The notes under the pieces were generated by a model. That model was not told where the DNA came from. It saw only the letters and a list, made by a program, of their open reading frames with translations, and did no database searches. Shown here in pieces: positions 3,021-23,152 of a stretch of 32,000 bases of DNA (its first letter is position 1; each line of letters begins with the position of its first letter). The stretch lies in contig NZ_CP040984.1 of the NCBI RefSeq assembly GCF_006364715.1, positions 421,446 through 453,445 on the forward strand, given 5' to 3'. The DNA comes from Candidatus Methylopumilus planktonicus. Lineage in GTDB: Bacteria; Pseudomonadota; Gammaproteobacteria; Burkholderiales; Methylophilaceae. The translations under genes and the position numbers were made by a program.

Positions 3021-4238
3021 TTGTGGGTGAGCTTTTTCTTTATTGCTTTATTAAGTGCAATATGGAGATGGGTGGGTCAAGGTAACGCTGAAGTTTTTGC
3101 TCACATGTTGGATAGCCTTTTCTCCATGGCAAAGTTATCCGTTGAAGTGATGGTATTACTTTTTGGAACACTGACTCTTTGGCTAGGTTTTTTAAAGATT
3201 GCTGAACACGCAGGTTTAGTTGAAAAGATAGCATCTTGGCTTTCACCACTTTTTAGACGACTCATGCCCGAGGTTCCTAAAAATCACCCAGCTACAGGTC
3301 TTATCACCATGAATTTTATTGCAAATGGATTAGGTCTTGATAATGCTGCGACACCTATTGGGTTAAAAGCGATGCGATCATTGCAATCACTTAATCCGAC
3401 ACCAAAAATTGCAAGTAATGCACAGATTCTTTTTTTAGTTATGAATGCTTCATCACTTACCTTACTTCCCGTATCAATTTTTATGTATCGTGCACAGCAA
3501 GGTGCGGTAGATCCCACACTCGTATTTTTACCTATTCTTTTAGCGACAAGTGCTTCTACCATGGCCGGCTTCTTCTCAGTTGCTTTCGCTCAGCGAATTA
3601 AATTAAATGACCCGGTAGTCATAACATGGATGTTAGCAATTGCGACTTTATTAAGTACGTTTATCTTATTTTTAAGCCACTTATCAGTAGCGGCATTAGG
3701 TGCATTCTCATCTCTCTTAGGCAATGCTGTCCTTTTCGGATTGATTATTACTTTTCTACTAATAGGTATTTTAAAACGTGTGCCAGTCTACGAGTCATTC
3801 ATTGAGGGTGCTAAAGAAGGTTTTGATGTCTCTAAAAATTTACTGCCTTACCTAGTTGCGATGTTATGTGCAGTCGGTGTTCTCCGAGCATCAGGTGCGC
3901 TTGATGTTGTATTAGATATGATTCGTTATCTAGCGACTAGTTTTAACTGGGATACGCGTTTTGTAGATGCATTACCTACAGCACTTGTGAAACCATTTTC
4001 TGGAAGTGCCGCAAGAGCTATGCTCATTGATACTATGACAACACATGGTGTGGATAGCTTTCCGTCACTTTTAGCAGCAACTGTACAAGGCAGTACTGAA
4101 ACTACTTTTTATGTTTTAGCAGTTTATTTTGGTGCAGTTGGTATTCAGCGTGCACGACATGCAGTTACTTGCGCATTGTTTGCAGACCTTGTGGGCGTCT
4201 TAGCATCTATTGCTGTTTGTTATTGGTTTTTTGGATAA
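3021..4238 (+). CDS. nucleoside-recognition (Gate) domain membrane protein, SpmA/SpmB-like fusion
   Basis: 405 aa and polytopic. The segment GLGLDNAATPIGLKAMRSLQ resembles the SpmA-type Gate domain. The start is a TTG/GTG cluster at 3021-3029 and is uncertain. Confidence 0.7.
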   Translation: MWVSFFFIALLSAIWRWVGQGNAEVFAHMLDSLFSMAKLSVEVMVLLFGTLTLWLGFLKIAEHAGLVEKIASWLSPLFRRLMPEVPKNHPATGLITMNFIANGLGLDNAATPIGLKAMRSLQSLNPTPKIASNAQILFLVMNASSLTLLPVSIFMYRAQQGAVDPTLVFLPILLATSASTMAGFFSVAFAQRIKLNDPVVITWMLAIATLLSTFILFLSHLSVAALGAFSSLLGNAVLFGLIITFLLIGILKRVPVYESFIEGAKEGFDVSKNLLPYLVAMLCAVGVLRASGALDVVLDMIRYLATSFNWDTRFVDALPTALVKPFSGSAARAMLIDTMTTHGVDSFPSLLAATVQGSTETTFYVLAVYFGAVGIQRARHAVTCALFADLVGVLASIAVCYWFFG

Positions 4239-4940: not shown

Positions 4941-5111
4941 TTTTATAACCTATTGATTTATATAGTTTTTTTGTAATTATCCCGGTTTAGTGTCATTTCT
5001 CTCATGATTTTCATTAGATCTCATTCATGATCCTCAAGGTGTTTACTTTTTAAGTCCGAGTAGTATTACGTTTAAGTACTTTCTCATTAACTTAATAAAA
5101 GGATCAACATC

Positions 5112-7127: not shown

Positions 7128-7203
7128 TGGTGGGGGATGCGAGGGTCGAACTCGCGACAAACGGATTAAGAGTCCGCTGCTCTACCAGCTGAGCTAATCC
7201 CCC
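7128..7203 (-). tRNA. tRNA-Lys (anticodon CUU), the only intact copy
   Basis: The reverse complement reads GGGGGATTAGCTCAGCTGGTAGAGCAGCGGACTCTTAATCCGTTTGTCGCGAGTTCGACCCTCGCATCCCCCACCA. It forms a 76-nt cloverleaf with anticodon loop CT-CTT-AA and an encoded CCA. Confidence 0.93.
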
Positions 7204-7290
7204 AGAAAAGAACATTTTACAGTATTTGTGGGGGTTGTAGAGGGGGTAGGATTGGGGATTTTGTTGGGGCTGGAATAGGGGTGTGTTAGG
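7166..7290 (-). repeat. repeat unit copy 1: tRNA-Lys positions 1-38 plus about 87 nt of G-rich (plus strand) leader
   Basis: Matches 8525-8650, 9298-9370 and 15515-15640 in direct orientation. All copies keep CAGAAA..ATTTTACAGTA next to the tRNA 5' end (TAAAAT on the tRNA strand, a likely -10). Confidence 0.85.
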
Positions 7291-7303
7291 AAATCACCAA
7301 TAG

Positions 7304-7409: not shown

Positions 7410-7676
7410 ATGGATAATTTTGAATATAACTTTGAGCTATTAAAAGCTACACGCTTAAGTAAAAAAATCTCAGCGCAAAGTATGGCTGCTGATTTATGTT
7501 TGGCTGAACGTCAAATCATTTCTATCGAAGAAAATAGCGTTCAATATTTTCCTTCTAAATCTCTTAAATACACCAGCTTAAAAAAATACATAGCAGCACT
7601 TGGTTTAAAAAATGAGGATGTCATCTTCAATTTTAATGAAGTTGACCCCACCCCAAGTTTGTTAAAGAAGCCATAG
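7410..7676 (+). CDS. RodZ-N-terminal-like (HTH_25-type) DNA-binding protein, paralog 1
   Basis: 88 aa with the pattern LLK.TR..K.IS....A..L.L...QI..IEEN....FP......LKKYIAALGL. It is paralogous to 17498..17764 and 20450..20836. Confidence 0.7.
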   Translation: MDNFEYNFELLKATRLSKKISAQSMAADLCLAERQIISIEENSVQYFPSKSLKYTSLKKYIAALGLKNEDVIFNFNEVDPTPSLLKKP

Positions 7677-7679
7677 AGT

Positions 7680-8069
7680 ATGCGAGCATTTGGTAATCTA
7701 TTCATTATTTTAAGTATTTTCACCTCAATACTCTTTGGACTTGAGTATTTTTCTGAAGCTACAATTGTGTTCTTAGCAGTTCTTCTGTATCTCACAGGGC
7801 ATTATGTGAGGCATAATTTTACCTATCGCAATTTTAAGATAAGCAGGCGATCAAAACCTTTTTTTGAATCAATATTAAAAAATACAATACAAGCCATTGC
7901 CTATGTAACTATCTTCATTTTTGTAGGCTACATACTCCTAAAAATCTCAAAAACTGATTTTTATCTAAATAATCTCCAAAGTTTGATGCAAAGCTCTATT
8001 GATGTAATCAATGAAATAATCAGATTTTGGATTAACTTACCTAGTCAATTAATGAAGTATGGACAATAA
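7680..8069 (+). CDS. membrane protein (variable middle gene of cassette 1)
   Basis: 129 aa with three hydrophobic helices. It starts 3 nt after the previous stop and overlaps the next gene by 11 nt. Confidence 0.55.
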   Translation: MRAFGNLFIILSIFTSILFGLEYFSEATIVFLAVLLYLTGHYVRHNFTYRNFKISRRSKPFFESILKNTIQAIAYVTIFIFVGYILLKISKTDFYLNNLQSLMQSSIDVINEIIRFWINLPSQLMKYGQ

Positions 8070-8388
8070 GCATCCTTTATTGACGAGTGCTTGTGAATAT
8101 ATAGAAATAAATCTTCATCTTAAGATTTCGATGTTAGATCTCAAGCGCCATACCAATTATTCCGAACGATCTTTACAGTTAATATTTAAAAAATACTTAA
8201 ATAAAAGTCCATTTGAATATATTGAAGAGCAAAGATTGTTAAAGGCTCACGAATTGATTAAGCAGCATAAACAATCAAAGAAAACTACTCACATTGCTAC
8301 AGAAGTAGGATTTAGACATTTAGGAAGATTCTCTGTGAACTTCAAAAAAAGGTTTGGCATTCATCCTTCAGTTTTAGCTCGATCTTAA
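8059..8388 (+). CDS. stand-alone AraC/XylS-type HTH regulator (SoxS/MarA-sized), paralog 1
   Basis: 109 aa containing only the AraC double-HTH region (LQLIFKKYLNKSPFEYIEEQRLLKAHELI...GFRHLGRFSVNFKKRFGIHPS). Confidence 0.8.
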   Translation: MDNKHPLLTSACEYIEINLHLKISMLDLKRHTNYSERSLQLIFKKYLNKSPFEYIEEQRLLKAHELIKQHKQSKKTTHIATEVGFRHLGRFSVNFKKRFGIHPSVLARS

Positions 8389-8400
8389 CTTAGAGATCAC

Positions 8401-8477: not shown

Positions 8478-8650
8478 TGCCTGGGTCTACTAGGGTGAGA
8501 TCTCAGAAAATTTAACTGATCTGCGAGTCCGCTGCTTGACCAGCTGAGCTAATCCCCCAGAAAAGAACATTTTACAGTATTTGTCTGGGTTGCAGAGGGG
8601 GTAGGTCGGGGGATTTTGGTAGTGGTGGAATAGGGGTGTGCTACGAAATG
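8478..8650 (-). pseudogene. tRNA-Lys relic copy 2 with a decayed 3' half, plus a leader copy
   Basis: 8525-8558 matches tRNA positions 1-34 with 2 mismatches. On the tRNA strand, 8478-8504 reads GAGATCTCACCCTAGTAGACCCAGGCA against the tRNA's GAGTTCGACCCTCGCATCCCCCACCA (about 17/27 with one gap). 8559-8650 is a copy of the G-rich leader. Confidence 0.6.
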
Positions 8651-9271: not shown

Positions 9272-9297
9272 TTCTTATCTTATTAAGTTGAGTTTTA

Positions 9298-9370
9298 GCT
9301 GCTCTACCAACTGAGCTAATCCCCCAGAAAAGAACATTTTACAGTAATTGTCTGGGTTGTAGGGGGTTTC
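9298..9370 (-). repeat. tRNA-Lys relic copy 3: positions 1-28 plus a truncated leader
   Basis: GCTGCTCTACCAACTGAGCTAATCCCCC has 1 mismatch to the tRNA. It is followed by AGAAAAGAACATTTTACAGTAATTGTCTGGGTTGTAGGGGG, and homology then stops. Confidence 0.75.
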
Positions 9371-9484
9371 TAATGGTGTAAATCGTATTCTAAGTTTTGT
9401 TGTGCGCAAGTGAAAGTTCAAAAACCATACACAGCGTATGGAAAAAAGTATTAGAATGATTTTAATAATTTAGAAAATACTTAA

Positions 9485-10012
9485 ATGTTTAATTGGACAA
9501 AAAACTTTTACAAAAAAGATTATTCAATACCTTTAACAATGGTTTTAGTTTTTGTTGTTTATTGGTTTGTCAAGACTGCAGTTAAGCATTCAGCCGCAAC
9601 TCCTTTCGTTTGGAGCAAAGGAATTTATGACGAAATATTTTCCATAGCGTTTGTTTTTATTTTTTTTAGAGTCGTTTTCTTAAAGACAAAATCAATACAA
9701 AAATTTATCTTCTATCAACATAGTTTTTTATGGCTTCTTACTAAAATTATTTGGTTTGTAAGTATAGTGTGGCTTTGGATTTTTCTTAGTTTTGAAATTC
9801 CAAAAATTACAACCAATATAATTTACAAAGCTACAGATTTACCTGTATATGTTATTGATCCCTGTAGTTATTGGACAGAAGAGTTGGATAGATATGCAAG
9901 TTGGACAAAGGAAGAGGAAAGTGAAGCCTTAAAATTTTGGAAAATTGATGATGTTTGGGGTTTTGATTCAAAATGCGCACCACGAGAATTTGAACGAGAT
10001 GAGCAATACTAA
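9485..10012 (+). CDS. hypothetical membrane protein
   Basis: 175 aa with three or four hydrophobic helices and an acidic C-terminal tail. No family recognised. Confidence 0.45.
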   Translation: MFNWTKNFYKKDYSIPLTMVLVFVVYWFVKTAVKHSAATPFVWSKGIYDEIFSIAFVFIFFRVVFLKTKSIQKFIFYQHSFLWLLTKIIWFVSIVWLWIFLSFEIPKITTNIIYKATDLPVYVIDPCSYWTEELDRYASWTKEEESEALKFWKIDDVWGFDSKCAPREFERDEQY

Positions 10013-10027
10013 CAAATAAAAGAATCT

Positions 10028-10426
10028 ATGTTTAATTGGCTTAAAAAAATTAGATCAAGAAAGTTGATTAAATTAGTAGTTTTAAATAATTCAGTTTTAG
10101 AAATAATAATGGATATGCAAAAAATTGGATTTGAGCAAAATTTAAAGCCTATACACGGCAATGATTTTAAAGATAGTGATGAATTTATTAAATGGTTAAA
10201 AAATCGATTTGTAATCAATCACGCTATTCTTTTAAAGTTTAAAAGAGATGGAGACATTAAAGACAAAAGCTCTGTTGATTTTATTTTAAAGTTAGATAAA
10301 GAGTTAAGGAATTGGTATCGAAAATCTTCAATTAGTATATTTCAATCATATGATGATCGATACAATAAGCCTCTAAGAGGTTGGGATGATATTTGCGAGA
10401 ATTTTTTTGATGAATTACCAAATTAA
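10028..10426 (+). CDS. hypothetical protein
   Basis: 132 aa and hydrophilic. It shares only the MFNW start with the preceding gene. No family recognised. Confidence 0.45.
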   Translation: MFNWLKKIRSRKLIKLVVLNNSVLEIIMDMQKIGFEQNLKPIHGNDFKDSDEFIKWLKNRFVINHAILLKFKRDGDIKDKSSVDFILKLDKELRNWYRKSSISIFQSYDDRYNKPLRGWDDICENFFDELPN

Positions 10427-10574
10427 ATATAGTAATTTTTCTTCACATCACATAACCAATCAAACAAATTCGTAATACCACTTTTTCAATATAAAAACCT
10501 AACGATTTTGAATCAAACAACATAATTAACAGTGTGGTCAAAAATCAAGTGCGGTTGGGAAAAAGTAGTTAGCA

Positions 10575-10754
10575 CTAAAAATTATTTGCACTTAACTTTT
10601 GTAATTGTTGCTGTATTTTTTGTTGCTTTTGTTTTTTTCTTTCAGCTTTAAGTAAATTTTGTGCATTCTTAACTTGTTTTTGCAGTGAATCAATCCGAGC
10701 CTGACTTGGAGTAAGAGGTTTTTGTGGTTTGATATTAAATTCATAAAAGCGCAT
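10575..10754 (-). CDS. hypothetical 59-aa Lys/Gln-rich protein
   Basis: Not in the ORF track. The product is MRFYEFNIKPQKPLTPSQARIDSLQKQVKNAQNLLKAERKKQKQQKIQQQLQKLSANNF. It starts 9 nt downstream of the stop of 10763..11206 on the same strand. Confidence 0.4.
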   Translation of the reverse strand: MRFYEFNIKPQKPLTPSQARIDSLQKQVKNAQNLLKAERKKQKQQKIQQQLQKLSANNF

Positions 10755-10762
10755 AACATTAT

Positions 10763-11206
10763 TTACTTTTTAAATGTGTTGCGTGTTTTTTCACTAACAC
10801 TTTCAATTGCGCTATCTAATTCACCATTAAGTACAGCATCTTTTAGTGCAATAAGCGTATCGATTAGCTCTTTTTTATCTTTAACCTCAATCGCATTGCT
10901 ACCATCCTTGTTTAGGAGGAGTGTCTTTGCCCCATACTTAATTTGTAAATTTAATTTACCGCTATCATTTACCCAATACCATTTGCGTAAACGTTTGTTA
11001 ACTTCTTTTGTATAACTTTGACCGTTTTCTTTGTTAGTATATTTTTTTTCTTTGCGCACACTATAATTACTACCATTTAATTCAGCTTTAGCTATTTCTA
11101 ATTGTTCGAATAGCTTTGTACACAACTTATTACGTTTTTGTTGTATAGGATTAATGTGTAACTGTTTTGTTGCTGTAATTAGATTTAATTTTGTAATTAA
11201 ATTCAT
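10763..11206 (-). CDS. hypothetical protein (island cargo)
   Basis: 147 aa. No catalytic motif recognised. It is divergent from 11340..11648. Confidence 0.5.
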   Translation of the reverse strand: MNLITKLNLITATKQLHINPIQQKRNKLCTKLFEQLEIAKAELNGSNYSVRKEKKYTNKENGQSYTKEVNKRLRKWYWVNDSGKLNLQIKYGAKTLLLNKDGSNAIEVKDKKELIDTLIALKDAVLNGELDSAIESVSEKTRNTFKK

Positions 11207-11339
11207 TTCATACTCCTAATGTTGTTATGTTTAGTACACATTAGTTTCTGATTTGTTAATAAAGCAAGTATTTGCCCAATCTTACCAAATAATTAGTCAC
11301 ATTTAGCCATCAATTATTATCAGTGTGCTAAATAAACAT

Positions 11340-11648
11340 ATGAATTACTACAAAGCAGACATAAAAACTAATGATTGGCTTAAATCGAATGGTATAAGTG
11401 TTAAACACTTTGCTAAAACTGATAGCCAATTACTTAAGGCTCAAAAGATAGCATTCAATTTATTAAAACATCATTTAAATTTACTAAGCACACCACAAAT
11501 TAAAACATTACGAGTGTATTGCGCACAAATGGCAAGTGATAAAAAACGAAATAAGATTACAGATAACTTTGTCTACAAAGTTCTAAATATAGGCACAAAA
11601 ATAAATCGACAACTATTTAAGGCAAATAAAGAGATAAACAACTCTTAA
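11340..11648 (+). CDS. hypothetical protein (island cargo)
   Basis: The track gives a GTG start at 11325, but the ATG at 11340 (MNYYKADIK...) is more conventional. The stop lies 2 nt before the 20-bp palindrome. Confidence 0.45.
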   Translation: MNYYKADIKTNDWLKSNGISVKHFAKTDSQLLKAQKIAFNLLKHHLNLLSTPQIKTLRVYCAQMASDKKRNKITDNFVYKVLNIGTKINRQLFKANKEINNS

Positions 11649-11650
11649 CA

Positions 11651-11670
11651 AGTATTACTTAAGTAATACT
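11651..11670. repeat. perfect 20-bp palindrome AGTATTACTTAAGTAATACT, candidate recombinase site A
   Basis: Exact inverted 10-mers. The same sequence recurs at 12873-12892 in 19/20 positions. Confidence 0.75.
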
Positions 11671-12268
11671 TTAACAAAGTGTAAAAACCCAATTTGTAAT
11701 ATGACGGCTAATGAGATTGGACTTGTATACAGTTGCTGAAAAAGCTGTATATGAATAAGGTGACCGCAGATTTGACTATGGTATGAGTAGTTTGGAAGTT
11801 TTAACACATCCGTCTTCCGTAAAATCATTTTTCAGTCGTGTACTTGCTAAACAAATACACATAACGATAGCTATGTTGCTTTTTTAAACAAAGCACATAG
11901 CCGTCGTATACCTCAAAACAAATCAAAAAAAACTAAAAAAAAATTGTGCTGAGCGATAAGCGATAGCACAAGCGAACTTTAGTTCGCTATTAATGTGTAT
12001 CTGTAATTCATATTAAGGTGCTTTAAACACATAATTTGAATTTAACTGTAAGTGCGCCCCAAATTATTCAATTAAGCGTTGTAGGGCTATGTAATTGTTG
12101 TATAAAAGCCACATAAATATAAAAAGACTAAAGATTATTGTGAAATTCTTTAGTCTTTAATGTAAGTCTTTGATTTTTGGCATATCACCCCAAACATTTC
12201 AGTCGATAGGAAAATTTTTGTAAAGAATACAAACTTATACACATATTTTATTATGTGAGGAGTTAAAA

Positions 12269-12835
12269 ATGGCACAAGCAAAATCGTTAACGCAATATGA
12301 AATCGATCAAGTACTTCGTTATGTATCAACTACACGTTATCACAAACGCAATCGTGCAATTGTGCTTACAAGTTTTTGGAGTGGTATGAGGGTGGGTGAA
12401 ATTGCTAATCTAAAAATAAGTGATATACGAAACGAAGATGGAAGTGTTAAAAGTGAAATAAGATTAACTTCAGCCCAAACAAAAGGAAAGTTTGGGCGTA
12501 CGGTGTATGTAAATGAGAAATTGCGCAGTGAATTAACTAATTATTTGGTTGGTTACAAACTGATTGAACCAAGTGCACCATTATTTAAAACAGAAAAAAA
12601 CAAAGCGTTCAGCCCAAACACTTTAACGCAATGGTTTTTTTGGATGTATAAAAAAGCTGCGGTGAGTGGGGCAAGTAGTCATAGTGGACGCCGTACTTTT
12701 ATTACTACATTGGCTCAGAAGGGGGTAGGGGTGCGGGTTTTAGCCAAGCTAGCTGGGCACCGCTCTATATCCATTACACAGGTCTATATTGATGTAAACG
12801 CTGATATGATGCGTAAAGCAGCGGAGCTCATATAA
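12269..12835 (+). CDS. small catalytic-domain-only tyrosine recombinase (FimB/FimE-sized)
   Basis: 188 aa. Arg-I context is GMRVGEIANLKISDI, H-x-x-R is in HSGRRTF, and H...Y is in GHRSISITQVY. An SD (GAGGAG) lies 7 nt upstream. Confidence 0.85.
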   Translation: MAQAKSLTQYEIDQVLRYVSTTRYHKRNRAIVLTSFWSGMRVGEIANLKISDIRNEDGSVKSEIRLTSAQTKGKFGRTVYVNEKLRSELTNYLVGYKLIEPSAPLFKTEKNKAFSPNTLTQWFFWMYKKAAVSGASSHSGRRTFITTLAQKGVGVRVLAKLAGHRSISITQVYIDVNADMMRKAAELI

Positions 12836-12853
12836 AAAAGTCATACTTCTACA

Positions 12854-12936
12854 AGTATTACCTAAAAATATCAGTATTACTTAAGTAATACCTCTTTTAG
12901 TGATCTTAATAAGTAATACTTAATTTAGTATTACTT
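12854..12936. repeat. cluster of AGTATTACTT arms: half-site, 19/20 palindrome (site B), and a 10-6-10 inverted pair (site C)
   Basis: AGTATTACCT at 12854-12863; AGTATTACTTAAGTAATACC at 12873-12892; AAGTAATACT-TAATTT-AGTATTACTT at 12911-12936. Confidence 0.75.
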
Positions 12937-14100
12937 TTTACTTTTTGATTTCAACTTTTTTTTAGCCGCAGATCGCTCTCCTCTGCTGTTATATATGAAA
13001 TTTTGAAAATCTAACTCATCTTCAAATCTTGCCGCCTGTTGCTTGTCAGCCCTCAATTGGTGGGCTTTCAGAGCCTCTTCTTCCCCAGCCTCTTGTAGTC
13101 TATGTTGTAGCTCTTCGGCCCAAATTTTCTCTTCTTTTTCTCTGATTTCATTTTCGAAGTGATCAACTTTACTAACAATAAATTTGGCAAATCGGTTTAC
13201 TATCAACTCATCTAATTCAAGATTTGGGGGGAGAATTGCATTGATGTGTAAATCTGCGTAATCACTTTCTCTGTCAAATTTTCTTACTCCTGTCCCCAAC
13301 ATTACACACATTGAATTATTTTGACTGAGATAGTTTTGTAAATGACGTGCAAGCATTGTTGTAGTTGCAAATGGTTTAACTTCTCGTATTTCTAAATATT
13401 TCATAATTACAATACGAGCCCGAGCCAATCTTTCCTTATATGTTTCAGCTTGCTGTAATTCAAGTTGGCTGAGTTGCACTGCTCCAGTAATTGTTATCTC
13501 ACTAATCCATTTAGTAAAATCCTCAATTTTAATATCAGAATGTTTTGCAACTTGTAATACAGAGCCGTATTTAAAAATTTGAGCTGTACCTATATCACCA
13601 AATATAAATCTAATAATTAGTGATGCGTCAGGTGTATTAGATTGTACTTTGACGTTATGTTCTTTAAACAGCTCTCTTATTTTTGCGTATAAAAAATCAC
13701 CATTCTCAGCATTTTCTGCTTCAATAAAAATTGAATAAGCTTCACTAATAGCTTGATATCTTTGTTTTCTAAATGCTTCTTTAGCAATATTGTATTTTTT
13801 TCGAACAGCAATGATTCTTTTTAACCAATCATTTACTTGCTGTTCTTGTAGCTTCATTTTATTTTCCCACTCCGCTAATCTTTGTTTTGATGTGTCATTA
13901 AGAATAATCGGATTTGCTTCACGCTCTTTGCGCATCTGTTCTGATGCTTTACGAATTGTTTCAAAACGTTCTAATATGTCTGGGGGGAGCGTTGATTTTA
14001 ATTTTGCTAAATTAGATTTAGCATTAGCTGTTCGTGTTTGTTTTTTTTGTGGGAGTTTAGATTTATTATTTGCTTTCTTTATCGCCATAATGTAGTCCAT
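12931..14100 (-). CDS. hypothetical coiled-coil protein adjacent to the integrase
   Basis: 389 aa with Lys/Glu-rich predicted coiled-coil N- and C-terminal regions around a central globular part. No motif recognised. Its stop codon lies inside recombinase site C. Confidence 0.55.
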   Translation of the reverse strand: MDYIMAIKKANNKSKLPQKKQTRTANAKSNLAKLKSTLPPDILERFETIRKASEQMRKEREANPIILNDTSKQRLAEWENKMKLQEQQVNDWLKRIIAVRKKYNIAKEAFRKQRYQAISEAYSIFIEAENAENGDFLYAKIRELFKEHNVKVQSNTPDASLIIRFIFGDIGTAQIFKYGSVLQVAKHSDIKIEDFTKWISEITITGAVQLSQLELQQAETYKERLARARIVIMKYLEIREVKPFATTTMLARHLQNYLSQNNSMCVMLGTGVRKFDRESDYADLHINAILPPNLELDELIVNRFAKFIVSKVDHFENEIREKEEKIWAEELQHRLQEAGEEEALKAHQLRADKQQAARFEDELDFQNFIYNSRGERSAAKKKLKSKSKK

Positions 14101-14134
14101 TTATAGTTGATAAAGAAACTTTAGCATAGGTAAA

Positions 14135-15373
14135 TTAACTTTCAATTAGTTTTCGAGTTGCTAATCCACTTAATTGTTCAATTGCTTTTACAGCATCTAA
14201 GTGACTGTAATGTTTTTCAATCATTACAACTGATGTTCCCATTTGTTTTGCTAACGTGTGTATGTTTACGTTGTCATACGTCAATGCAAACGTAGCATAA
14301 GTGTGTCGTATGCTGTAAAACGAACGTGGTTTAAGTGTAATAGGGCAAATAAGCAACTTCATTTCTTTTAAATAACCAATAAACATTCTAAAAAAACTAC
14401 TTGGCTTAACCATTTTAGGTATTTGATTTAATTTTCCATTACGTTTACTGCAAAATTCTATATATCGAAAGATGTAATCTTGTTTATTTGCATTTAGTAT
14501 ATCTTCTAACGACATATTAAAATTACGTTCTGCAATTCTACGCAGAGCTTGTATTGTTGGCTCACGAGCGATTGCACGACGTTCGCCTGTTTTACTTTTC
14601 TGTATGTTAAAAATTAAATTGTGTTCGTTAGCAAATTTAATATTGCTCCATTTCAATTCAAACAACTCACGTCCAGGACGTGCACCTGTGTCTAATAAAA
14701 TAATCACATAGTCTTTTAATAGATAACGTAGTTGCATACTGTGTGTTTTTGCTTTTTGTATCCAACTATCAAATCCACTCATCATCTTTTTAATTTCTTC
14801 TAAACTAAACTCGACACGACGTTCACACTTTGCACCTTTTGCAACTAACACAGGACGCTGTGCTTCAGTCATATAGCCGTGCAATACAGCTTCATCAAAT
14901 ACACGTTTAAGCGCAGCATTGTGATTTAGTATAGTGCTCCGTTTAGGAACTTTACCCATTTTTTTAATACGAAACTTTTCTAACAACTCTAATTCTTTTA
15001 ATTTAATTTGTTCGACTGACAAGTTGCCAAGCACGGGAGTTAGATAACTTCTAATTATCATTGAGTAATCTTTGTAAATTGCTTTACCTTCATTCTGTGC
15101 AATTTCATTTTCAATTCTTTGCATTGCTAATTTTGCAACATCCTTAAATTTTTTTGACACAGGAGCGATGTTTAATTTATCTCGCACGTGTGCTTCAATT
15201 AAAATCATATTCGCACTTTGTATTGCACTTTCTAATGTGTATTCATTTGTCGAGCAACGTATCCACTCATCTTTAATTTTGTATCGACATTGCCACTTGT
15301 CACTGTTCGCTCGCTTAAACACAATTAGTTTGCGTTTAATTACTTCGTGTGTAGTTTCTATACGCTCTCTCAT
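14135..15373 (-). CDS. tyrosine-type site-specific integrase
   Basis: 412 aa. The Arg-I context is TGARPGRELFELKWSNI, with IRHTYATFAL and a C-terminal IEKHYSHL (catalytic Tyr). It lies next to a tRNA-like relic. Confidence 0.88.
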   Translation of the reverse strand: MRERIETTHEVIKRKLIVFKRANSDKWQCRYKIKDEWIRCSTNEYTLESAIQSANMILIEAHVRDKLNIAPVSKKFKDVAKLAMQRIENEIAQNEGKAIYKDYSMIIRSYLTPVLGNLSVEQIKLKELELLEKFRIKKMGKVPKRSTILNHNAALKRVFDEAVLHGYMTEAQRPVLVAKGAKCERRVEFSLEEIKKMMSGFDSWIQKAKTHSMQLRYLLKDYVIILLDTGARPGRELFELKWSNIKFANEHNLIFNIQKSKTGERRAIAREPTIQALRRIAERNFNMSLEDILNANKQDYIFRYIEFCSKRNGKLNQIPKMVKPSSFFRMFIGYLKEMKLLICPITLKPRSFYSIRHTYATFALTYDNVNIHTLAKQMGTSVVMIEKHYSHLDAVKAIEQLSGLATRKLIES

Positions 15374-15412
15374 TGCAAAAGCGTAATTTCATAACACACA
15401 AAGAGCAATCAA

Positions 15413-15453
15413 AAGTGCGCATAAGGTGTGCAAGTTAAAAAAGTGTGCGATTG
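15413..15453. repeat. three direct GTGYGC(R)A repeats between int and relic copy 4, candidate arm-type sites
   Basis: AAGTGCGCA, AGGTGTGCA and AAGTGTGCGA fall within 41 nt. The motif is shared with 8421-8440. Confidence 0.45.
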
Positions 15454-15480
15454 AAAAGTAGTGATGCCATAGAAACAGCG

Positions 15481-15640
15481 TGGCTGTAGGATGGGGTGAC
15501 TCTGAACAACGTTTTTAAGAGTCCGCTGCTCTACCAGCTGAGCTAATCCCCCAGAAAGTGATATTTTACAGTAATTGTGGGCGTTGTAGAGGGGGTAGGT
15601 GGGGGGATTTTGGCAGGGGTGGAATGGGGGTGTGTTGAAA
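15481..15640 (-). pseudogene. tRNA-Lys relic copy 4 (perfect 5' 38 nt, decayed 3' half) plus a leader copy
   Basis: 15515-15552 is identical to tRNA positions 1-38. On the tRNA strand the continuation is AAACGTTGTTCAGAGTCACCCCATCCTACAGCCA against the tRNA's TCCGTTTGTCGCGAGTTCGACCCTCGCATCCCCCACCA, with ordered blocks CGTT, GAGT, ACCC, CATCC and CCA. 15553-15640 is the G-rich leader. Confidence 0.65.
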
Positions 15641-15643
15641 AGC

Positions 15644-17497: not shown

Positions 17498-17764
17498 ATG
17501 AATAAACTTGAATACAATTGTGATCTACTAAAAACTACTCGCGAAAGCAAGAAGATTACAGCACATAGTATCGCCGTTGATATATGTTTAGCTGAGCGTC
17601 AGATTAAGTCTTTAGAAGAAAATAGTCTTCAATACTTTCCCTCTCAATCCATCAAATACACAGCTTTAAAAAAATATATAGCCGCACTGGGATTAAAAAT
17701 TGATGACGTTATCGTTAACATTAATCAAATTGATCCAATACCCAGCTTATTAAAGAAGAAATAA
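17498..17764 (+). CDS. RodZ-N-terminal-like HTH protein, paralog 2
   Basis: 88 aa and collinear with 7410..7676 (for example DICLAERQIKSLEENSLQYFPSQSIKYTALKKYIAALGLK). Confidence 0.7.
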   Translation: MNKLEYNCDLLKTTRESKKITAHSIAVDICLAERQIKSLEENSLQYFPSQSIKYTALKKYIAALGLKIDDVIVNINQIDPIPSLLKKK

Positions 17765-17768
17765 GCCT

Positions 17769-18179
17769 ATGAAATTTAAATATACAATTTTGCTTTTTGC
17801 ATGGGTTATAAGTTCTTCTTTATCCCATGCGTCTGATTTCGATTCCCTGTCAGAGCTTATTCAAAAAGGTAAGGAAACCGAAGCAATTGCAAAAATTAAT
17901 CGGTATATACAAAAATACCCAAACGACCCCAAGGTAAAATTTATTTATGGGGCAACCCTTGACCATTTTGGTAGGACACAAGAAGCCAAAAAAGTTTTTT
18001 TACATTTAAATCGTAAATACCCAAATAATCCTACTATTAAGAATAATCTTGGTGTTCTCTATGCAAAGCTGGGTGAATACAGTGCTGCTTATACTTTTTT
18101 TGGATCTGCCTTGAGATTGAAACCTAATTATCAAGAAGCTAAAAATAATCAATGGCTTGTTCAACAGAAGATTAACTAA
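17769..18179 (+). CDS. secreted TPR-repeat protein (variable middle gene of cassette 2)
   Basis: 136 aa with a signal peptide ending SLSHA. TPR-like repeats include NNLGVLYAKLGEYSAAYTFFGSALRLKPNYQEA. Confidence 0.7.
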   Translation: MKFKYTILLFAWVISSSLSHASDFDSLSELIQKGKETEAIAKINRYIQKYPNDPKVKFIYGATLDHFGRTQEAKKVFLHLNRKYPNNPTIKNNLGVLYAKLGEYSAAYTFFGSALRLKPNYQEAKNNQWLVQQKIN

Positions 18180-18186
18180 TTTTTAT

Positions 18187-18516
18187 ATGAGCCAAAAAGA
18201 TCCTGTATTTTTAAGTGTATGTGAATATATACAAGCTAATGTTAAATCTAAAATCACCATGTCAAATCTTGAGAGGTACGCTGCGCTTTCTGGAAGAGCT
18301 TTACAGTTAAAATTTAAGAAATATCTAAACAAAACACCCTTTCAATACATACAAGAACAAAAGATGTTAAAGGCGCATGAGTTAATTAAGGAATATCAAT
18401 GCTCTAAAACAATCTCAGAAATTGCTCTTGAATTAAAATTTAGCCATTTAGGAAGATTTTCTGTGAACTTCAAAAAAAGGTTTGGCATTTATCCTTCAGT
18501 TTTAGCTCGATCTTGA
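18187..18516 (+). CDS. stand-alone AraC/XylS-type HTH regulator, paralog 2
   Basis: ATG 18187 (MSQKDPVF...) gives 109 aa, the same length as paralog 1. The track start at 18157 overlaps the TPR gene. The last 70 nt are 68/70 identical to 8317-8386. Confidence 0.8.
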   Translation: MSQKDPVFLSVCEYIQANVKSKITMSNLERYAALSGRALQLKFKKYLNKTPFQYIQEQKMLKAHELIKEYQCSKTISEIALELKFSHLGRFSVNFKKRFGIYPSVLARS

Positions 18517-18527
18517 TTTATCTAAAC

Positions 18528-20449: not shown

Positions 20450-20836
20450 TTGGTGTTTGATATCGATAATTTTGAATATAACTTTGAGCTTCTTAAAAAG
20501 ACGCGTGAAGATAAACAAATGAGCAAGCTCGAAATGGCTCATCAACTATGCTTATCTGTAAATCAAATTGATTCCATTGAAGAGAATAGCTTTAGATACT
20601 TTCCGGCAGAATCTATAAAGTTCGCAGCAGTCAAAAAATATGTATTAGCACTTAATTTGGATTTAGATCAGGTAATAATAAAAGAAGACGAGGTGGCTCC
20701 GCTTAATGCCCCCTCAACAGTTCCTTCATTACTCTCAAAAGAAAAAAATAAGATTAAAAAAGGCACTTACAGAAACAAAGCCAATGAATTAAGAAAAGCA
20801 TGGCAAGACTTGTTGCGTAGATTGCTTAAAAATTAA
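20450..20836 (+). CDS. RodZ-N-terminal-like HTH protein, paralog 3 (longer, basic C-terminal tail)
   Basis: 128 aa with a TTG/GTG start (20450/20453). DNFEYNFELLKKTRE...NQIDSIEENSFRYFPAESIKFAAVKKYVLALNL is collinear with paralogs 1 and 2. Confidence 0.65.
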   Translation: MVFDIDNFEYNFELLKKTREDKQMSKLEMAHQLCLSVNQIDSIEENSFRYFPAESIKFAAVKKYVLALNLDLDQVIIKEDEVAPLNAPSTVPSLLSKEKNKIKKGTYRNKANELRKAWQDLLRRLLKN

Positions 20837-22894: not shown

Positions 22895-23152
22895 TTACTT
22901 ACTTTCATATTCAGATCCAGGGTTAAAGCCACCATTGCCACCAATCAATAATGCATCTGTAGGGTGAAATGGTTTAAAGTCAGGTTCTACTTCAACCTTA
23001 TTTCCATATTCAGTGCCAGGATTAAAGCCACCATTACCACCAATCAATAATGCATCTGTGGGATGAAAGGGTTTAAAACCTAAATCTTCTTCTGCGAAAA
23101 GAGGAACGCTCAAGAAAGAAAGTAAAAAAACAAAAGCTAATATTTTTTTCAT
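22895..23152 (-). CDS. small secreted protein with two near-identical repeats
   Basis: 85 aa with signal peptide MKKILAFVFLLSFLSVPLFA. FKPFHPTDALLIGGNGGFNPG then occurs twice, 21/21 identical. A GGAG SD lies 8 nt upstream. Confidence 0.6.
   Translation of the reverse strand: MKKILAFVFLLSFLSVPLFAEEDLGFKPFHPTDALLIGGNGGFNPGTEYGNKVEVEPDFKPFHPTDALLIGGNGGFNPGSEYESK

Follow-up and report, generated by a model that had tools for sequence, protein, structure and literature searches.

Positions 11,651 to 12,936 of the window (the whole 32,000-nt stretch of the 'Candidatus Methylopumilus planktonicus' contig NZ_CP040984.1 that was analysed) encode a small tyrosine recombinase, here termed rec, which is bracketed by short palindromes, and a sequence-only reading had taken this arrangement for a candidate switch of the FimB/FimE type that inverts or excises the DNA between the palindromes. 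From our point of view, which we hold tentatively, this 1.3-kb stretch is rather the conserved core of an integrative island, equipped with a resolvase-type recombinase and with palindromic boxes that belong to the module of a neighbouring gene, p389, and not a fim-type invertible promoter segment. Within this core, p107, an RNA of ~440 nt, a leader of ~160 nt with an inverted repeat, and rec follow each other in a conserved order; the co-occurrence of the palindromes with p389, the collinearity of the contigs and the structure of the RNA are shown. The RNA very probably represents a class of large structured RNAs that has neither a match in Rfam nor a description in the literature searched. 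The features of the locus are compiled in Table 1.

Table 1. Features of the island core and its surroundings, with positions counted in the window
Feature	Position	Strand	Description
tRNA-Lys(ctt)	7128-7203	-	
Repeat family D1	7170-7294, 8525-8649, 9292-9416, 15519-15643		125 nt, four copies
Left island boundary	9292..9416	no strand	partial tRNA-Lys 5'-half copy and upstream sequence
p59	10575-10754	-	conserved backbone gene, divergent from p107
DUF6641 protein	10763-11206	-	PF20346, E 1.3e-7; conserved backbone gene, divergent from p107
p107	11340..11648	+	102-aa all-helical protein, ATG at 11340; upstream partner of the RNA
Palindrome A	11650..11671	no strand	two AGTAWTACT boxes, 11 bp apart, in a perfect 22-bp palindrome
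Conserved structured RNA	11672..12110	+	~440 nt, pseudoknotted; 5' domain 11672-11910
RNA helix P1	11689-95/11714-20	+	
RNA helix P2	11726-32/11745-51	+	
RNA pseudoknot	P2 loop 11734-43 with 11828-38	+	partner ~90 nt downstream
RNA helix P4	11794-98/11814-18	+	
RNA helix P5	11839-42/11856-59	+	
RNA helix P6	11864-74/11897-11907	+	
Further RNA hairpins	11946-69, 11971-88	+	
rec leader	12111-12268	+	~160 nt, conserved also in loci without the RNA
Leader inverted repeat or hairpin	12124..12157	+	AAGACTAAAGA ... TCTTTAGTCTT, ~145 bp before the rec ATG
rec	12269..12835	+	188-aa tyrosine recombinase, catalytic domain only; PF00589
Box array	12838..12936	no strand	six AGTAWTACT boxes in the gap where rec and p389 converge
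p389	12931..14100	-	389 aa, lysine-rich N-terminus; gene family tracked by the palindromes
int	14135..15373	-	412-aa island integrase; PF00589, E 4.7e-9; phrog_1, E 1.3e-29
Right island boundary	15519..15643	no strand	125-nt repeat copy adjoining int

Arrangement of the locus and its recombinase

The case against a switch is mainly comparative (L-numbers denote the comparison loci, i.e. contigs, of this analysis). In the window lineage, 14 contigs each match 11301-13000 in a single collinear alignment of 96-99.6% identity, and the ten contigs that encode the exact p107 protein display the same gene order, which amounts to at least 20 independent contigs, with at least one contig common to both sets. 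No inversion, deletion or p107-p389 junction was found in these contigs of the same element, bearing in mind that assemblies show only the majority arrangement and that a rare inversion or excision would escape a comparison of contigs. Alternative orientations or a deletion of 11651-12892, as postulated for the switch, are hence not seen at the level of assemblies, and since the palindrome is in addition absent from ~100 other loci carrying the rec family and present in loci without rec, a fim-like function is not supported. As such, perfect palindromes around a small recombinase are insufficient for calling an invertible switch, and in the present case the comparative context reassigns them to another gene.

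The description of rec as a recombinase that is reduced to its catalytic domain and nevertheless has a complete active site was confirmed, as its sole Pfam match is PF00589 (residues 6-178, E 2.9e-25) and R41, K72, H138, R141, H164 and Y173 are invariant in 26 members of the rec family. Its likeness to FimB/FimE stood up only in part: the size of 188 aa, the restriction to the catalytic domain and the R-K-H-R-H-Y set of residues agree with it, whereas the scores against the FimB/FimE invertase models NF007370 and NF007371 (44.9 bits versus a cut-off of 221 and 28 versus 222, respectively) are far too low. The best NCBIfam matches, namely to XerA (85.8 versus 220), XerC (76.1 versus 335) and XerD (74.9 versus 330), also remain below their cut-offs, such that the comparison with profile models places rec in neither family; indeed, rec falls below every NCBIfam cut-off and has no curated family membership. 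It matches only the C-terminal halves of the XerA, XerC and XerD models and of the PDB chains 4a8e and 5hxy, and the N-terminal core-binding domain of a Xer resolvase is missing. The family is large, with at least 7,925 homologs; the 120 best of these mostly measure 187-222 aa, are 64-99% identical and stem from several proteobacterial classes.

Upstream of rec, the leader is the least variable stretch in the window lineage, with 0.032 variable sites per position compared to 0.041 in the rec coding sequence and 0.053 in the 5' domain of the RNA, these three being the most conserved parts. Its inverted repeat, of which the window holds one copy, recurs at about -140 to -155 in many rec family members, where arms of 10-14 bp are separated by 4-8 bp, for example as AGGTAAAGAAAA-TTACAC-TTTTCTTAACCT, and members without the RNA possess it too; some family members show no clear repeat at this position. 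Judged from its sequence, such a position-conserved inverted repeat with a short spacer is built like a core site placed ahead of the gene for its own tyrosine recombinase, an arrangement found in resolution cassettes, and it could equally be a hairpin in the 5' untranslated region of the rec transcript. In two loci (L139 and L059), a serine resolvase of 190-198 aa (PF00239, E 2.8e-39, plus HTH_7) replaces rec; its open reading frame (ORF) starts 548 nt past the RNA motif, and both the RNA 5' domain and P0, a hairpin that precedes this domain in relatives and is lost in the window, are intact upstream. This replacement suggests that the position is one for a small resolution or inversion enzyme. 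Rec would most likely act as a resolvase-type maintenance recombinase on the single leader repeat, i.e. as a self-contained unit that probably resolves multimers at this site.

P0 was also considered as a potential site of rec and rejected, given its persistence upstream of the serine resolvase and its loss in the window. Separately, a repeat of the leader type was observed twice in a Methylophilaceae chromosome (ME-M6, L012), where TAGGTAAAGAAAAT..ATTTTCTTTACCTA at 2705-2734 and 3847-3876, with the spacers TAGC and ACAT, flanks a 344-aa island integrase and one copy lies at a chromosomal transporter-gene junction. Downstream of rec, a palindrome of the TGTCGTTTTAAACGACA type follows the stop codon within at most ~10 nt in L042, L051, L062, L069 (three copies), L089, L094 and L098, and other lineages carry GC-rich, terminator-like hairpins right after the rec stop codon.

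The structured RNA and p107

The DNA between palindrome A and rec had been regarded as non-coding, and it is no promoter segment. The ORF-free ~600 bp between p107 and rec consist of a conserved structured RNA and the conserved rec leader, and conservation of this gap extends to Orrella daihaiensis and a deltaproteobacterium. For 56 sequences, RNAalifold proposed 27 base pairs, 14 of them with compensatory changes. In a four-helix model of 28 pairs for the same number of sequences, 98.0% of the cells are paired as opposed to 35-56% when the partners are slid, and double changes occur in 218 cells versus 6-30 in the slid controls, a value that none of 500 shuffles reached; altogether, 15 of the 28 pairs show double changes. 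The predominance of G-U pairs at four positions assigns the fold to the plus strand. The window RNA on its own already yields a z-score of -6.4 in a single-sequence fold.

With the 4,227 models of Rfam 15, only tRNAs match in the window at the gathering score, nothing relevant appears in 11500-13000 or in 10 homologous loci at E-values up to 5, and 17 related loci gave no match at gathering and permissive thresholds. The literature searched (on RNA-guided tyrosine recombinases, DUF6641, structured RNAs with recombinases, and tycheposons) does not describe the RNA or the module. The element is abundant, as the motif ATATGACGGCTAATG-N40-65-CCGCAGA occurs in at least 120 metagenome contigs, mostly of freshwater origin, and in 2 IMG/VR contigs, and as the exact rec protein is indexed in 237 blocks of a public assembly collection. 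Within the RNA, we further noticed that the invariant GACGGCUA in the P1 loop (11703-11710) is complementary to the invariant UAGCCGUC, which forms the 3' strand of P6 (11898-11905), and nearly duplicates the 5' strand of P6 (11867-11874); this complementarity suggests an alternative or intermolecular pairing.

The most constant neighbour of the RNA is p107, a homolog of which (called at 99-112 aa) immediately precedes the RNA motif in 110 of 125 loci, while the DUF6641 gene is present in 87 and p59 in 27 of them. Rec starts 570-880 nt downstream of the motif on the same strand in ~75 loci. On the other hand, 35 genome loci with a rec that is 53-66% identical to that of the window have neither the RNA 5' domain nor p107, and ~12 RNA loci with enough downstream room lack rec. 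The RNA is also found in the two viral contigs from IMG/VR, with its 5' domain at 280-347 in L160 and at 2803-3259 in L161, the latter with a distant p107 homolog directly upstream (hhalign E 8e-5). One of the two contigs carries a tail-fibre gene (phrog_5616, E 3.7e-51), and the other, that with the distant p107 homolog, encodes a podophage Gp77 adaptor (E 5.7e-18). The ORFs examined behind the RNA in these viral contigs include no recombinase. By its genomic distribution, the RNA thus goes with p107 and not with rec, and the p107-RNA pair would constitute a phage-type unit.

The AlphaFold model of p107 is all-helical (pLDDT 93.3) and found no significant match in fold searches against PDB and BFVD, and a sequence search of PDB was also empty. 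One could speculate that p107 and the RNA form a phage-type ribonucleoprotein that is common to the islands and to podophage-like viruses, or was taken from the latter, with a role in assembly, packaging, interference with a helper, or self-association via GACGGCUA/UAGCCGUC. The islands would then represent a new kind of phage satellite, with the boxes as a lineage-specific control layer and rec as a maintenance enzyme, but we consider this broader scenario doubtful.

Some further observations concern the surroundings of the RNA. A homing-endonuclease-like gene is also located near it in the viral contigs. In most loci, three to six AGGCA repeats with a spacing of ~10-11 bp occur at and past the 3' end of p107, upstream of P0 (e.g. 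L004:4160-4215, L053, L047, L098); some are coding (INRQLFK motif), and the window has one. A further conserved non-coding element, "type B", occupies roughly the same place in loci without the main RNA (~450 nt shared; L164:7102-7887, L167:1988-2434, L005 at ~3150-3560 and L028-L034 at ~3350-3730), which has no Rfam match and the orientation of which relative to the DUF6641 gene differs between L164 and L032.

Palindromes, p389 and competing explanations

The palindromes reported earlier are all borne out by direct reading of the sequence. Palindrome A, with the core AGTATTACTTAAGTAATACT at 11651-11670, even extends to 22 bp and starts 2 nt past the p107 stop codon, immediately 5' of the conserved RNA. 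Downstream of rec follow the half-site AGTATTACCT (12854-12863), site B (12873-12892), which is a 19/20 copy of the palindrome A core, and site C (12911-12936), in which AAGTAATACT-TAATTT-AGTATTACTT form a 10-6-10 layout that covers the stop codon of p389, as had been noted. With up to one mismatch, the 10-mer has 16 matches in the window as compared to 4.45 expected, a number that none of 100 shuffles attained, and 11 of these 16 fall into 11650-11671 and 12838-12936. Some of the matches are counted twice, overlapping on both strands, because the real unit is the self-complementary 9-mer AGTAWTACT. Two such boxes form palindrome A (starting at 11651 and 11662) and six lie within 12839-12935 (starting at 12839, 12854, 12873, 12884, 12912 and 12927, those at 12839, 12854 and 12884 with one mismatch); the boxes at 12839-47 and 12854-62 are single, and those of A and B are paired with a gap of 2 bp. 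The supposed look-alikes at 5062 and 20933 do exist as single units with one mismatch, but are no more than what is expected by chance.

Among the comparison loci, the window lineage (L151, L125, L163, L168-L178), L141 and L126, and L006 carry the palindrome, and L164 and L165 have it in degenerate form; all of these have close p389 homologs, the set of which comprises L141, L126, L006, L163, L164, L166 and L167. In L163, where p389 is 83% identical, A, B and C are kept and B is perfect. L164 and L165 (p389 46% identical) display about eight AAGyrwTrCTT boxes directly past the p389 stop codon without having rec, p107 or the RNA, and L166 has three single box units. In L141, a second palindrome copy is located 16 nt before the start of the p389 homolog, so that 23-nt arms with 100% complementarity lie 3.2 kb apart, and in L006 one copy is found 31 nt before that start. 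A search of ~75 family loci for sequence upstream of the RNA that recurs downstream of rec yielded such repeats in the window lineage only. Since the rec proteins of palindrome-bearing loci are 47-65% identical to that of the window and scattered through the family, and yet the half-site is identical, the boxes follow p389 and not rec. Two further candidates were dismissed: the single palindrome match in IMG/VR (L162) was treated as unrelated, having no p389 homolog, and palindrome A is not a homolog of P0, as L044, L126 and L141 carry both, an intact P0 being located downstream of a palindrome that sits at the stop codon of p107.

The palindromes may hence be putative protein-binding boxes of the p389 module, with p389 itself or a partner as the candidate binder. 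They lie at borders of transcription units, i.e. over a possible promoter of the RNA, between the convergent ends of rec and p389 and, in relatives, before p389, and would likely serve in transcription control or insulation, or as iteron- or centromere-like sites of an excised circle; crossover sites they probably are not. Several observations weigh against this assignment. By sequence, p389 matches nothing in Pfam, NCBIfam, PHROG or PDB, and a look-up of the exact protein found it not on record; more to the point, its model (pLDDT 73) has no fold match in PDB or BFVD and no recognisable DNA-binding fold. In L167, a p389 homolog comes with no box, and in L044, which has the palindrome, the only p389-like gene is a distant one (E 6e-9). 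Inside the window lineage, the boxes show about the same variability as the sequence around them. The sigma-70-like match that palindrome A overlaps in our own reading (TTAACA at 11645-50, a 16-nt spacer and TACTTT at 11667-72) is weak in its consensus, and scans of 11150-13000 for sigma-70 promoters and intrinsic terminators gave nothing above chance and did not report this match. To these points can be added the hairpin alternative for the leader repeat, i.e. for the proposed site of rec.

The arrangement around rec itself has to be counted here, too. The recombinase is catalytically complete and lies between palindrome copies in three lineages (window, L141, L006), and the 10-6-10 geometry of site C is that of a core site for a tyrosine recombinase, such that the palindromes could be the crossover sites of rec, which would invert or excise the flanked unit (the RNA and rec in the window, rec and p389 in L141 and L006), both outcomes being possible given the symmetry of the sites. 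The order of genes around rec does vary, as the DUF6641 and p59 genes are inverted in L008, L013 and L017, and as rec, together with its leader, is turned around with respect to the RNA 5' domain in L095 (850-2120 of a 2.3-kb contig). The arrangement in L095 could be a real inversion or a misassembly; convincing repeats at its boundaries were not found, nor was a close reference without the inversion. We nevertheless regard crossover at the palindromes as rather unlikely, in view of the uniform collinearity of the at least 20 contigs, the ~100 rec-family loci without the palindrome and its occurrence without rec in L164. Moreover, the 2-bp gap between the boxes of A and B is too short for a crossover region of 6-8 bp, palindrome A carries an uncompensated mutation (11663 G>T) in 4 of 14 lineage members, and the rec leader offers a family-wide candidate site instead. 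It is also conceivable that no dedicated binder exists and that the palindromes are RNA hairpins, acting as terminators or in processing or stabilisation, that delimit the transcripts of p107, of the RNA with rec, and of p389. Their location exactly at gene ends (the p107 stop codon and the convergent gap), the UCUUUU that follows B and the UUUUACUUUUU that follows C on the plus strand would fit this idea, as would the unrelated TGTCGTTTTAAACGACA-type and GC-rich palindromes behind rec in other loci. A symmetric variant in L006, AGTGTTACTTAAGTAACACT at ~300 nt upstream of rec, retains pairing and fits a hairpin as well as it fits protein binding. Pairing alone, however, would not require the 10-mer to stay unchanged across elements whose proteins are only 31-49% identical, the copies in L141 and L006 that precede the p389 start lie at no 3' end, the scan for terminators was negative, and the single boxes at 12839 and 12854 cannot form hairpins, so that we assign this explanation a low probability.

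A third possibility is that p389 serves the replication or partition of the excised circle, with the boxes as an iteron- or centromere-like array and rec as the enzyme resolving multimers. At least six boxes in an AT-rich gap beside p389, a comparable array in L164, the exchangeability of rec for a serine resolvase, as in plasmid multimer-resolution systems, and a sub-threshold match of the basic N-terminus of the L141 p389 homolog to HC2, a histone H1-like family, point in this direction. We consider it quite improbable, as neither the sequence nor the fold of p389 resembles a Rep, ParB or primase, the boxes form inverted pairs rather than direct repeats, and most p389-bearing relatives have only one or two palindromes. 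Finally, a rec that lacks an N-terminal DNA-binding domain and is preceded in ~75 loci by a large conserved RNA on the same strand might be guided or scaffolded by this RNA, in a tyrosine-recombinase counterpart to the bridge RNAs of IS110. Since the RNA is tied to p107 and not to rec, an RNA-guided recombinase is unlikely, and we rate it as highly improbable: the two do not depend on each other for their occurrence, as seen from the 35 rec loci without the RNA and from the RNA without rec in ~12 island loci and in phage contigs, and behind an intact RNA, rec can be replaced by a serine resolvase with a helix-turn-helix of its own. With the exception of palindrome A, the RNA also shares no exact match of at least 12 nt with the island ends or the rest of the window, a search by which short split guides would be undetectable. 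Our preferred, tentative reading thus remains that of an island core in which the boxes belong to the p389 module and rec is of the resolvase type.

Related systems and island setting

FimB and FimE of E. coli are small tyrosine recombinases that act on the invertible element fimS, and the locus resembles this system in having a catalytic-domain-only recombinase of ~190-200 aa with short inverted repeats near its gene. In contrast to it, the scores of rec fall far below the cut-offs, the at least 20 contigs show a single orientation, the flanked DNA consists of a structured RNA and the rec gene and not of a promoter cassette, and the repeats follow p389. Resolution cassettes are known from Cre-loxP, ResD-rfsF, TnpI-IRS and the Tn3-type resolvase-res systems; as in these, a small recombinase gene is preceded by one short-spacer inverted repeat with a single copy in the window, and a tyrosine or a serine enzyme can fill the same position in loci of the window type. 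They differ in that rec lacks the core-binding domain, that the repeat could be an RNA hairpin, and that L012 has two copies with different spacers flanking an integrase. The pdif modules of Acinetobacter plasmids are gene modules flanked by inverted XerC/D sites, and similar to these, gene units are here bracketed by short palindromic sites, with site C in an arm-6-arm layout. Unlike pdif modules, rec is encoded by the element and is not XerC/D, there is no evidence of module movement, and the boxes bear no evident resemblance to dif.

ROOL and GOLLD are Rfam families of large structured RNAs from prophages and mobile elements, with which the window RNA shares the character of a large RNA with many helices and invariant loops, and its carriage by phages and integrated elements; it matches neither family, is smaller (core ~270-440 nt) and has p107 as a fixed protein neighbour. 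Large conserved RNAs beside the enzymes of mobile elements have repeatedly proven to be functional partners, as exemplified by the omega-RNA of IscB and the bridge RNA of IS110. As the present RNA is shared by islands and phages and has a fixed protein neighbour, this class is directly testable. While small tyrosine recombinases, operator-like palindromes and islands in tRNA genes are known kinds of features, the conserved module and above all its RNA appear to be new, the latter being pseudoknotted, with invariant loops, abundant in freshwater metagenomes and present in both islands and phages. The backbone is made up almost wholly of undescribed parts, namely the 102-aa p107 with a fold that is novel according to its model, DUF6641, p389 and the pseudoknotted RNA. 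In IS110 elements, a structured non-coding RNA (bridge RNA or seekRNA) is located directly upstream of a DEDD recombinase gene (PMC11208160). The window is alike in that an RNA is encoded directly upstream of a recombinase in a mobile element, and unlike in that the enzyme is of the tyrosine class, the RNA and rec are separable, and no guide-like complementarity of at least 12 nt was found.

That rec lies inside an integrative island, as suggested from the outset, is well supported. The island of ~6.2 kb is integrated at tRNA-Lys(ctt), with its last unit at ~9417-15643 and the integrase int beside direct repeats of a partial tRNA, the D1 repeat consisting of the 5' half of tRNA-Lys and its upstream DNA. 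In the terms of the consulted passages of PMC10872708, the tRNA-Lys(ctt) repeat array corresponds to an additive flexible genomic island of freshwater Methylophilaceae such as 'Ca. Methylopumilus'. Shared with this island, and with tycheposons, are the tandem cassettes split by repeats of the tRNA-Lys(ctt) end and the streamlined freshwater genomes, while the p107-RNA-rec backbone, the palindromes and the RNA are not mentioned in these passages of the article (PMC10872708).

Beyond the core, the D1 repeats delimit small cassettes, including those of an AraC-type helix-turn-helix gene and of a cation-efflux gene. Duplicated modules (7410-8392 versus 17498-18520, and also 20462-20520) are 75-78% identical, and each has at its end a small gene of the AraC family (HTH_18; 8059-8388 and 18157-18516). 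Small AraC genes like these border the island in L163, L175 and L176. Related islands further carry defence or modification cargo, i.e. a type I restriction-modification system, a methylase with a GmrSD/HNH-type nuclease, and a DNA methylase (L164:1714-6026, L166:2246-4424 and L169:238-1137). Lastly, a 96-nt segment is repeated in tandem at 22898-23092, with 83% identity and a period of 99 nt.

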